46,329 bases of DNA from an uncultured Candidatus Bathyarchaeia archaeon (lineage in GTDB: Archaea; Thermoproteota; Bathyarchaeia; Bathyarchaeales; Bathyarchaeaceae). This document shows, piece by piece, positions 2,387 through 21,721 of this stretch (position 1 is the stretch's first letter; each line of letters begins with the position of its first letter). The notes beneath the pieces were generated by a model. The model was given only the letters and a program-made list of their open reading frames with translations, was not told where the DNA came from and ran no database searches. Location: contig CAZUFG010000002.1 in NCBI GenBank assembly GCA_964618655.1, positions 1-46,329 of the forward strand. The letters are read 5' to 3'. Position numbers and translations under genes: made by a program.

Positions 2387-3364
2387 TTAAGGCAAAAATC
2401 TGGATACAATATCTGGTATCTGGTCAAAATCTGTATAACCCTCAGTTTTTATCTTCATCTCATTTTTAAGAGTGCGTATCATAGAAGAGATCCACCTTGG
2501 AGGTCGTTTTCTATGTCGGTCTGTAGGAGCAGCCCATACGATGAGTAACTTCACGCAATAGTCACGAACTCTTTCAATTTCCATGAGTTGCCCTGCTTCT
2601 TCTGTAACATCAATTATTGCATACCTGCAAGTGTGCAACAACATTAGAGAATGATGATGAATCCACTTACCTGGAATGTAGACCTCATCAGCTATAACCG
2701 GAGTTAAGCCCTTAAGTATTGCAGCATTTCTAATCTCATTCAAGTTTGGTCTCTGCCTAGTAAAATTTCCCCCAATAAACACTCGTTTTTCCCACGGTTG
2801 GGGGAATCCTAATGGTTGCTTCTCAAAAATGACAGGTCTTTCAATAGTTTGAGAAAGGATGTTGTGAGCGTCAAAGTTAAGTCTCTCGGTAACTTCATTC
2901 AACATCTCTTCGGGGTCACAAATGTTCCTCCACAAGCCTGCTGCTTTTTTCTCAGCTGCAAGGCGTTTGATTTCACCTAAGATTTTTAATTTTACGCGGA
3001 AGAAATCTCTAAGTACATTTGCTGCGGGATATCGATCGATTTCATCTTCTTCCGTATAGTTTACATTTAAAGAGTCTTCTACATAAGCCAGAATAACAGA
3101 ACGGATAGCCTCCTCCATCTTGTCTCTTTGAGGTATAAGACAAATTCCGATCATGTGGAGTGGACCACCTTTATGAATGGGGCGATCTATAGCGGACTGA
3201 ATTTGTATGAGTCGTTCTAGCTCTTGTCTGTAGATACGTTCAGCATCTGTATATTTCCGTGTGAGCCATTTCAACAAAGCATTCTGGTCCAGCCTTGAAA
3301 TTTCATCACTGTAGTTTGGAGGGATACTTCGGTCGATAGGTTCTACGGCGCTCATTTTTATCAT
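2387..3364 (-). CDS. Hypothetical protein (orphan, AT-rich) with a C-terminal Rossmann-like module
   Basis: 325-aa ORF with no competing frame. No family recognised for the N-terminal part. The C-terminal KRVFIGGNF...PVIADEVYIP...YAIIDVTEEAGQLMEIE pattern is discussed in findings. Confidence 0.6.
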   Translation of the reverse strand: MIKMSAVEPIDRSIPPNYSDEISRLDQNALLKWLTRKYTDAERIYRQELERLIQIQSAIDRPIHKGGPLHMIGICLIPQRDKMEEAIRSVILAYVEDSLNVNYTEEDEIDRYPAANVLRDFFRVKLKILGEIKRLAAEKKAAGLWRNICDPEEMLNEVTERLNFDAHNILSQTIERPVIFEKQPLGFPQPWEKRVFIGGNFTRQRPNLNEIRNAAILKGLTPVIADEVYIPGKWIHHHSLMLLHTCRYAIIDVTEEAGQLMEIERVRDYCVKLLIVWAAPTDRHRKRPPRWISSMIRTLKNEMKIKTEGYTDFDQIPDIVSRFLP

Positions 3365-3536
3365 CTCTACATTTCTTTTTTATTGATAATGTTTAAGAAT
3401 TGTGTACGTCAAGAACTGGTTTGCGAATGTAGTTTACGTTCATAACATCTCAAAGCTTCTTTACAATGATTTCACTATAACTATAAATTTAGATTAGACT
3501 TGAACGTATTTCTGACTCGGGAAGGACTGAAAAATA

Positions 3537-19185: not shown

Positions 19186-19417
19186 TTGATGACGAGGATT
19201 AGCGCGCCGTGGGAAGTAAAGCGAGAGCTTGTGGTTAAGGCTGAGGAAGAAACTGACCCACGCTTTGGACATATGCCAGACAAGCGACCTTTACAGGAAT
19301 ACATGAAGTTTGGAATAATCAACCTAGACAAGCCAGCAGGTCCGTCGAGCCACGAAGTTACAGCGTGGATGAAGCGCATCTTAGGCGTTGAGCAGGCTGG
19401 ACACGGCGGGACCCTAG
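19186..19417 (+). CDS. cbf5: Pseudouridine synthase Cbf5 (H/ACA RNP catalytic subunit), exon 1
   Basis: FGIINLDKPAGPSSHEVTAWMKRILGVEQAGHGGTL aligns with the Cbf5/TruB motif I-II region. The exon ends with the first base of the catalytic Asp codon. TTG 19186 or ATG 19189 could be the start. Confidence 0.9.
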
Positions 19418-19446
19418 AAGCCTACTTAGCATAGATGGCTAGGGAA
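19418..19446 (+). other. 29-nt bulge-helix-bulge (BHB) intron within the cbf5 coding sequence
   Basis: Canonical hBHBh' fold. Helices are 19408-19411/19448-19451, 19412-19415/19441-19444 and 19419-19422/19437-19440, with 3-nt bulges at 19416-19418 and 19445-19447. Removing the intron restores GTLDPKVTGVLP in frame. The intron carries an in-frame TAG. Confidence 0.88.
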
Positions 19447-20336
19447 ATCCCAAAGTGACGGGTGTTCTGCCCATCGCCCTAGAAGAAGCCACGAAGGTGA
19501 TTCAGGCTCTCCTCCTTTCAGGGAAGGAATACGTCTGTGTTATGAGACTCCATTCTGAAGTGCCCGAAGACAGGGTTCGGGCTGTTTTAGCCGAGTTTTG
19601 CGGGGTAATTTACCAACGTCCGCCCCTTCGAGCCTCAGTTAAGCGGAGACTGAGGACGCGAAAAATCTATTACAGCAACCTTCTTGAGATGAGTGGGAAG
19701 AACGTTCTTTTTAGGGTTGGATGCGAAGCTGGGACCTACATACGGAAACTCTGCTACGATTTGGGTGAGGCGCTTGGCTGTGGAGCCCACATGCAGGAGC
19801 TCCGCCGAACTCGATCTGGACCATTAGTTGAAGAAGAAGGGCTTGTAACACTGCACGACGTGTCCTATTTGTTTGGGGAATGGCAAGAAACGAAAGATGA
19901 GACTCTGCTTAAGAAGTTTATAATGCCCATGGAGAGGGCACTGGAACTACTTCCGAAAGTTTACATACGTGACTCTGCCGTAGACGCGGTTTGTCACGGA
20001 GCCCACCTCTCTGCGCCGGGCGTCTTATCTCTGGAGACGAAGATAAAACCTGGTGATGCGGTGGTTGTGTTTACTCTGAAGGGTGAGGCTGTGGCGTTGT
20101 CGAAAGCCCTAGCGTCTACGGAGGAAATTTTAAGGATGGAGCATGGGCTGGTGGCTAAAACTCAGCGGGTTCTGATGCCTCGCGGCTTCTATCCCAAAAT
20201 GTGGCGCAGCGGTTCAAAAAAGCTAAAGAACACCCATAAACCTTCTATTCATGACTGGCGAAAAAGCCGGGGTATCCTAGGGCAGAAAAACAGACAAGAC
20301 TGCGGGAAGTCCGGTAGGGAGCAGATTCAATCCTGA
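19447..20336 (+). CDS. cbf5: Pseudouridine synthase Cbf5, exon 2 (catalytic and PUA domains); the tail reads into the tRNA-Ser gene
   Basis: (D)PKVTGVLPIALEEATKV..., YQRPPLRASVKRRLRTR, GTYIRKLCYDLG and a PUA domain ending ...RVLMPRGFYPKMW. The stop TGA at 20334-20336 lies inside tRNA intron 2. Confidence 0.9.
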
Positions 20337-20421
20337 ACGAAGCTTATGCCTGGAGTTGTCTAGCTTAGACAGCCTGTGGCCCTTCGGGGCCGCGTGGGTT
20401 CAAATCCCACCCCCGGCGCCA
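20266..20421 (+). tRNA. tRNA-Ser (anticodon GGA) with three BHB introns (20281-20309, 20325-20347, 20356-20370) and an encoded CCA
   Basis: Hand-folded. The spliced 89-nt product is GCCGGGG-UA-UCCU-AGUCCGGUA-GGGA-G-CAGGC-CUGGAGA-GCCUG, then a long variable arm (GGCCC-UUCG-GGGCC), GUGGG-UUCAAAU-CCCAC, CCCCGGC and G-CCA. All stems pair and U33, G18G19 and discriminator G73 are present. Each intron is flanked by a 4-bp central helix with 3-nt bulges cut after the second bulge nucleotide. Confidence 0.85.
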
Positions 20422-20816
20422 ACAACATTGTCGAGGATGAACCCCCATGGTCTGCTATTTCCATTTTCTGACAAGAATTTTGATTCTGGCCTCTTTAAAC
20501 GGAGCCCACCACAAGCTTCTTCAACAAAACAAAACCAGCCTCAAAGTCCGATTTCAACCCTCCCGCTAGACTCCCTTCTAGGCTAACTCGCAAATTTTTT
20601 CTTCTGGGTCAGAATCAAAGGACACCTCTACAAAGGCTACCATGAATGCCCACTCTGCGGCAGACAAACCACTTAAGGCCCTTTATTGTTTAACCTCACA
20701 AATCGCTTTAATGATTCGGAATCTGAATTAAACAGATTAACTCTCCATATTTTATCTTCACAAACTTAATTTTTAACTCTTTCCAGAATTATTAATGCAA
20801 CACAGGAGACTGTTAA

Positions 20817-21554: not shown

Positions 21555-21640
21555 TCACGCCCACTACGCCACATTCTCAAAAAACGAGAACTGCCAGGAT
21601 CAGAAAAAAAGGGAAGATTGCGGGGGATATCACCCCGCTT

Positions 21641-21668
21641 GCGTGGGTTCAAATCCCCCCCGGCGCCA
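21641..21668 (+). pseudogene. Truncated tRNA-like fragment (T-arm, acceptor 3' strand and CCA) duplicating the 3' end of tRNA-Ser
   Basis: GCGTGGGTTCAAATCCC-CCCCGGCGCCA equals 20392-20421 except for a 2-nt deletion that breaks the T-stem. No matching 5' acceptor strand lies upstream. It is preceded by a hairpin (21620-21638) and a sequence resembling tRNA-Ser intron 1. Confidence 0.7.
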
Positions 21669-21721
21669 AAAATATCTTTTTCAACAAACCCGCAGTCTAG
21701 GATCTGAATGTTTAGGGAGTT

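Follow-up and report, generated by a model that had tools for sequence, protein, structure and literature searches.

The 156-nt locus at 20266–20421 on the plus strand of the window (the whole 46,329-nt stretch of DNA that was analysed, contig C2 of a 1.33-Mb Bathyarchaeia MAG with 200 contigs and approximately 75% completeness) begins with GCCGGGG and ends with CCCCGGC-G-CCA. The question that it raises is whether it is a working tRNA-Ser(GGA) gene interrupted by three introns, a decaying tRNA copy, or a tRNA gene that has to be read or processed in another way. Judged from sequence comparisons, the locus is very probably a real and functional three-intron tRNA-Ser(GGA) gene of this uncultured Bathyarchaeia archaeon.

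Gene anatomy and splice motifs

A preliminary description of this DNA had proposed boundaries for the gene, coordinates for three introns, and a set of helices around each of them. All of these were confirmed on the sequence. Exons of 15, 15, 8, and 51 nt alternate with introns of 29, 23, and 15 nt as follows.

20266–20280 (+): exon 1, with the acceptor 5' strand, U8 A9, the D-stem 5' strand UCCU, and A14 G15; near-invariant in 61 orthologues

20281–20309 (+): intron 1, 29 nt, at position 15/16 in the D-loop; relaxed HBh' motif

20310–20324 (+): exon 2, with the remainder of the D-loop, the D-stem 3' strand GGGA, G26, and C27 A28 G29

20325–20347 (+): intron 2, 23 nt, at position 29/30 in the anticodon stem; full hBHBh' motif

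20348–20355 (+): exon 3, an 8-nt micro-exon with G30 C31 and the loop nucleotides C32 U33 G34 G35 A36 G37, which contain the anticodon GGA

20356–20370 (+): intron 3, 15 nt, at the canonical position 37/38; relaxed hBH/BHL-type motif

20371–20421 (+): exon 4, with A38, the anticodon-stem 3' strand, the variable arm, the T arm, the acceptor 3' strand, G73, and CCA

Removal of the three introns gives an 89-nt class II RNA, and ARAGORN called the spliced sequence as tRNA-Ser(GGA), in agreement with the identity first proposed. The acceptor stem of the spliced 89-mer has 7 bp, the D-stem 4 bp (UCCU/GGGA), and the anticodon and T stems 5 bp each. The earlier statement that the stems are perfect stands in so far as all of them are paired; since one D-stem pair is U:G, it is true only when wobble pairs are counted. 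The anticodon loop is CU-GGA-GA, the variable arm is long, with a 6-bp stem and a UUCG loop, and the discriminator is G73. A long variable arm, G73, and a serine anticodon are serine identity features. The CCA end is genome-encoded at 20419–20421. All four exons are collinear inside the 156 nt, and a split or permuted tRNA gene of the Nanoarchaeum, Caldivirga, or Thermofilum type is ruled out by this arrangement at one locus.

One putative promoter element was picked by eye upstream of the gene.

20215–20231 (+): A-rich, TATA-like promoter candidate CAAAAAAGCTAAAGAAC, 35–51 nt upstream of the mature 5' end

Similar A-rich or TATA-like motifs (AAAAAGCTAAAAA, TTTAAATA, and CTTAAATA) are found at approximately −50 to −30 in most orthologues. 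When a strict promoter regex was applied, 26 of 58 orthologues were matched, at a median position of −44, and the window sequence itself was unmatched. The motif at 20215–20231 may act as the promoter of the tRNA gene.

The preliminary description had also warned that standard gene finders could miss or mis-call the locus, and this was borne out. ARAGORN with default settings reported no tRNA across the whole window, and Rfam gave no match in the window at the gathering score; with permissive E-values on 20200–20480, Rfam returned weak tRNA-like matches to the 3' exon (exon 4) only. In intron mode (ARAGORN -i), the unspliced locus was called as a tRNA-Leu(TAG) with a 67-nt intron. Two orthologues with a single intron (L091 and L092) likewise stayed below the Rfam gathering score. 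In the whole genome of the archaeon, the Rfam tRNA model found 16 tRNAs and ARAGORN -i found 21, several of them miscalled, one example being a 'Pyl' tRNA with a 1453-nt intron. These counts and miscalls point to non-canonical or multiple introns in many tRNA genes of the genome. Bathyarchaeia MAGs will seem poor in tRNAs where ARAGORN and Rfam miss or misname such genes, as the 16 tRNAs found by Rfam here illustrate. Intron-aware tools are needed; otherwise, these MAGs appear to be without tRNA-Ser(GGA) and many other tRNAs.

In all three introns, the predicted cut sites fall after the second base of a 3-nt bulge, and the central helix is fully paired (4/4) in the window; below, an arrow marks the cut or the corresponding exon junction. 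The central helix of intron 1 pairs TCCT (20275–78) with GGGA (20304–07), that is UCCU:GGGA with U10–U13 on the exon side, and its inner helix pairs GCAG (20282–85) with CTGC (20300–03), the bulges being AG↓G and AG↓U. Because there is no outer helix, the motif is of the relaxed HBh' form, and cleavage would therefore need an enzyme of relaxed specificity, such as the EndA sequences described below suggest. Intron 2 has an outer helix of TAGG (20315–18) with CCTG (20349–52), corresponding to U20–G23 with C31–G34, a central helix of GAGC (20319–22) with GCTT (20342–45), corresponding to G24–C27 with GCUU, and an inner helix of TTC (20326–28) with GAA (20339–41); its bulges are AG↓A and AU↓G. 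In intron 3, the central helix of CTGG (20350–53) with TTAG (20365–68), corresponding to C32–G35 with UUAG, contains two G:U pairs, the outer helix is the anticodon stem, the inner helix is absent, and the bulges are AG↓U and AC↓A.

According to the mechanism that we propose, the locus would be transcribed in vivo into a precursor of approximately 156 nt plus leader and trailer, carrying three protein-spliced introns (15/16, 29/30, and 37/38). EndA would cut after the second base of every 3-nt bulge, and RtcB would join the four exons into the 89-nt class II tRNA with its encoded CCA. Both D-stem strands of the precursor would be tied up in the motifs of introns 1 and 2, and because the GGGA at the 3' end of intron 1 duplicates the D-stem 3' strand, the D-arm would be able to form only after splicing. 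Nucleotides C32–G34 are common to the central helix of intron 3 and the outer helix of intron 2. As both motifs use these nucleotides, they are mutually exclusive in time, and introns 2 and 3 would be recognised sequentially. Such mutually exclusive motifs in multi-intron archaeal tRNAs are also described in the tRNAscan-SE 2.0 paper (PMC8450103).

Keeping the exon boundaries where the cloverleaf places them, we shuffled each intron 200,000 times. The results showed that the central and inner helices had P values of 2e-5 for intron 1, 4e-4 for intron 2, and 0.03 for intron 3, the combined value, as the product of the three, being approximately 3e-10. The folding energy of the precursor was −67.4 kcal/mol (z = −2.9 versus shuffles). 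Its unconstrained minimum-energy fold includes the intron 1 BHB and the central helix of intron 2, and an 8-bp hairpin competes in that fold with the intron 3 BHB. The intron 3 motif of the window is weak, with two G:U pairs, no inner helix, and a competing hairpin.

Orthologues, intron-less alleles, and splice-site choice

Orthologues were searched for in one genome per GTDB species with a pattern composed of exon 2, intron 2, and exon 3. The search gave 68 loci, nearly all titled Bathyarchaeia or Bathyarchaeota, and several titled Methanomethylicota. Matches on bacterial contigs (Paraburkholderia, Nitrospira, and others) were rejected as chance, there being no surrounding tRNA. When the scan loci were combined with 19 loci from relatives, 61 distinct tRNA-Ser(GGA) genes could be parsed. 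Three introns at identical positions were present in 49 of the 61; intron 1 alone was missing in eight, intron 3 alone in three, and introns 1 and 3 together in one. The eight genes devoid of intron 1 came from four Methanomethylicota/Methanomethylicales, two Bathyarchaeia, one near-identical sequence titled Nitrososphaerota, and one contig binned as 'Levybacteria'.

Some of the taxonomic labels deserve comment. An archaeal tRNA-Ser(GGA) with two introns lies on L077 (MFNH01000055.1), a contig binned as 'Candidatus Levybacteria', and L081 (JAEOSH010000083.1), binned as the Asgard archaeon 'Candidatus Baldrarchaeum yapensis', and Bathyarchaeota B26-2 have identical tRNA-Ser(GGA) sequences; the contigs L077 and L081 are probably mis-binned archaeal (Bathyarchaeia-like) sequences. 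The locus and flanks of L028 (CAZTWF010000106.1, 'uncultured Nitrososphaerota archaeon') are almost identical to those of L030, from the Methanomethylicota MAG WYZ-LMO11, and the label of L028 may be wrong.

Exon identity to the window had a median of 94%, and intron identity was 52–61% (about 55%). The introns varied in length from 14 to 30 nt (intron 1), 12 to 33 nt (intron 2), and 10 to 26 nt (intron 3); apart from three introns of 29–30 nt, intron 1 of the window is the longest among the orthologues parsed. The central helix of intron 1 was fully paired in 52 of 52 orthologues (with GGGA, GGGG, or AGGG), and its bulges were of the form AG↓R and AN↓Y. The first two pairs of its inner helix (G:C and C:G) were near-invariant, and pair 3 covaried (C:G in 24, A:U in 13, and U:A in three). 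For intron 2, the outer helix was invariant, the central helix had 4/4 pairs in 48 of the 61 orthologues and 3/4 in the remaining 13, and two inner pairs covaried, the first as U:A (32) or C:G (17), and the second as C:G (24), U:A (18), A:U (4), or G:C (2). The central helix of intron 3 was often relaxed, with 4/4 pairs in 18 orthologues, 3/4 in 30, and 2/4 in nine.

Natural alleles that have no intron at one or more of these positions provide a view of the joined exons. Alleles without intron 1, from Methanomethylicota and some Bathyarchaeia, read CCTAG↓TCT/TCC/CCA/TTA GG. L091 and L092, from two further genomes of the same order, possess the canonical intron only; lacking introns 1 and 2, they contain the contiguous sequence GGTAGGGAGCAG↓GCCTGGAG (GCAG↓GCCTGGAG) and CCTAG↓TCC or TTA. 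Orthologues without intron 3 (four sequences) read GGAG↓AGCC. Thus, each predicted exon–exon junction occurs somewhere as uninterrupted DNA.

It is conceivable that the gene is real and its processing differs from the scheme above, with intron 3 cut poorly or held in another fold (the 8-bp hairpin), or with the intron 1 junction at 14/15. Exon 1 and intron 1 of the window each end in G, so that junctions at 14/15 and 15/16 would yield the same mature sequence there. BHB geometry, with the cut after the second bulge base, nevertheless gives 15/16; moreover, intron 1 ends in A in most orthologues, where the ambiguity is gone, and the intron-less alleles read CCTAG↓T. As for intron 3, the weakness of its central helix, which has just two to three pairs in 39 of 57 orthologues, and the dominance of the competing hairpin in the minimum-energy fold speak for inefficient cutting, whereas relaxed BHL-type motifs are known substrates of (alpha-beta)2 enzymes (PMC3241643). 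We therefore consider such a deviation very unlikely.

To describe how far the layout extends, a strict pattern for introns 1 and 2 was applied to sampled genomes. It was present in 13 of 13 genomes of the window's family; elsewhere in the order, outside that family, 12 of 74 genomes had it. Among 214 genomes from other orders of the class it was found in none, a figure that is a lower bound and not absence, since only genomes with the exact exon sequence can be matched. By these comparisons, the three-intron layout is stable over the family and much of the order. The intron position 29/30 is common to Bathyarchaeia and Methanomethylicota.

Splicing enzymes, the cbf5 neighbourhood, and other serine tRNA genes

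Two PF01974 (EndA) paralogues, of 185 aa (contig C185, 587–1144, minus strand) and 202 aa (contig C49), and an RtcB ligase gene are present in the genome. The 185-aa EndA retains the catalytic Tyr, His, and Lys, and its best match, with E = 1e-43, was chain 3p1z_B of A. pernix EndA, a chain that we take to be the alpha subunit. Its residues K39-P40-K41 align on K44-P45-R46 of the A. pernix protein, in the Crenarchaea-specific loop. The lysine of this specificity loop is required in A. pernix for cutting D-loop and relaxed (BHL) introns (PMC3241643). The 202-aa EndA has no catalytic His (TAKY, versus HSKY in relatives), which fits a role as structural beta subunit. From these features, we infer that EndA is an (alpha-beta)2 heterotetramer with a Crenarchaea-type specificity loop and broad specificity.

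The tRNA gene lies just downstream of, and is partly overlapped by, the following reading frame.

19455–20336 (+): cbf5 second-exon reading frame, with the Pfam domains TruB_N, TruB_C_2, and PUA

The frame has 293 residues, and its PUA domain extends to residue 240. The tail of the frame crosses the tRNA promoter region and 71 nt of the tRNA gene, and its stop codon TGA (20334–20336) is located inside intron 2. In 11 relatives with an upstream cbf5, the stop is found 36–75 nt before the tRNA, shortly past a conserved ...YPKMWR; the cbf5 of the window is devoid of this stop and has approximately 45 extra codons. The overlap has the appearance of a stop-loss extension and not of a designed arrangement. 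The linkage between cbf5 and tRNA-Ser(GGA) is conserved widely in the order.

Together with the three tRNA introns, an interruption of cbf5 itself by a BHB intron (19408–19451) makes four BHB introns in approximately 1 kb. The boundaries of the cbf5 intron read CCCTAG↓AAGCC...GGCTAGGGAA↓A, and those of tRNA intron 1 (20281–20309) read TCCTAG↓GGCAG...CTGCGGGAAG↓T, or TCCTAG↓AGCC...GGCGGGAAA↓T in relatives. The two introns have the boundary design CCTAG↓RGC...GC(N)GGGAA↓ in common, which could result from endonuclease preference or from common origin.

A truncated copy of the last approximately 30 nt of the tRNA-Ser was observed at 21601–21675 (+), 1.25 kb downstream. It spans the part from the T-arm to CCA with a few additional bases; its T-stem is disrupted by a 2-nt deletion, and TTGCGGGGGATATC and a 6-bp hairpin lie in front of it. 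In a sibling copy on contig C48 of the same genome (approximately 3360–3420, minus strand), the leader TTGCGGGTGATATC is followed by a tRNA-Cys-like 3' end. The truncated copies resemble remnant att sites from a single family of integrating elements. The sole gene between tRNA-Ser(GGA) and the partial copy is PadR-like.

We looked for another gene that could supply the same anticodon. No second contiguous Ser(GGA) anticodon arm in a tRNA context was found in the archaeon's own genome (approximately 75% complete). In the relative G019, which is 97% complete and consists of a single contig, the 3' halves of serine type were assigned to four genes, with the anticodons UGA, CGA, GCU, and GGA; the CGA gene carries a canonical intron, and the GGA gene, with its three introns, is the only tRNA-Ser(GGA) of G019. 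The intron-less Ser(GCU) paralogue of G019 shares the unusual D-arm of the three-intron gene; its anticodon stem is near-identical too, with one G:C replaced by G:U, and it scored 51 bits on Rfam RF00005. The gene of the window is probably the sole tRNA-Ser(GGA) gene of the organism. The concern that an intact rival gene exists was thus not substantiated in either genome, and the three-intron reading was upheld by 49 of 61 orthologues, intron-less alleles, covarying inner helices, and the genes for EndA and RtcB.

These results also bear on whether the locus is a decaying tRNA pseudogene with insertions, tRNA-Ser(GGA) being supplied by another gene. Such a view could draw on the cbf5 reading frame that enters the locus, the truncated tRNA-Ser 3' fragment 1.2 kb downstream, and the fact that the genome is just 75% complete. 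A relic would hardly be expected to display exons approximately 94% conserved over 61 orthologues, inserts that diverge freely while BHB pairing is kept via compensatory changes, and a spliced product in which every stem is intact; furthermore, searches of this genome and of the 97%-complete G019 revealed no other Ser(GGA). Hence, decay is extremely unlikely. The remaining reading, a tRNA-Leu(UAG) gene with a single 67-nt intron as called by ARAGORN in intron mode, is of negligible likelihood, as it leaves two mismatched D-stem pairs, two anticodon-stem mismatches, and an unpaired 'variable arm', assigns 'exonic' bases to segments whose length and sequence differ from one orthologue to the next, implies an anticodon arm whose conservation in orthologues is not seen, and conflicts with intron-less alleles that join the exons according to the Ser(GGA) model.

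Relation to known multi-intron tRNA genes

Archaeal tRNA genes with two or three non-canonical introns are well documented, mainly in Thermoproteales, and three introns per gene is the usual stated maximum (PMC4033280, PMC3218864, PMC8450103). Multi-intron pre-tRNAs were reported by Sugahara et al. in 2008, as reviewed, in Pyrobaculum calidifontis, Thermofilum pendens, and other Thermoproteales (PMC4033280, PMC8450103). The present gene resembles those of Thermoproteales, where a single gene may hold up to three BHB introns, in canonical as well as non-canonical positions and with relaxed BHB forms. Further likenesses are the close-set introns, one of which would be removed before the next motif forms, and the putative (alpha-beta)2-type EndA. 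It differs in its host lineage, Bathyarchaeia, and, unlike the recent transposition-driven intron gain proposed for Thermoproteales, its layout is stable in the family and beyond (13/13 sampled family genomes).

In A. pernix pre-tRNA-Thr(UGU), experiments have demonstrated cleavage of a D-loop BHB intron by (alpha-beta)2 EndA via the Crenarchaea-specific loop (PMC3241643). The D-loop BHB intron and the catalytic alpha subunit are similar here, with KPK on K44-P45-R46, whereas there are three introns instead of one, and cleavage, proven in A. pernix, is predicted from sequence in the present case. One eukaryotic tRNA gene also has three short ectopic introns, one of them in the D-arm, but the intron positions are different and the endonuclease complex here is archaeal. 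In the literature that was searched, no description of tRNA introns in Bathyarchaeia or Bathyarchaeota was found. The layout is not new in kind; it is known from other archaea and is common to dozens of uncultured Bathyarchaeia, and the understanding of the tRNA splicing mechanism is unchanged by the finding.

A more speculative interpretation, which we think unlikely, is that the three-intron layout is an old, selectively kept state of this tRNA and no passive relic. It is raised because the layout is fixed in 13 of 13 family genomes, because the 29/30 intron occurs in Methanomethylicota, and because the gene is tightly linked to a BHB-interrupted cbf5. If it were true, the introns might make both Cbf5 and the only tRNA that reads UCC/UCU dependent on EndA/RtcB activity for their maturation, might order folding and modification, the D-arm forming only post-splicing, or might disrupt the target sequence of an integrase.

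For the group as a whole, the finding means that tRNAs with several introns, a feature best known in Thermoproteales, occur widely and stably in Bathyarchaeia, and the 29/30 intron that Bathyarchaeia have in common with Methanomethylicota bears on the question of whether such introns are recent gains or an old feature.
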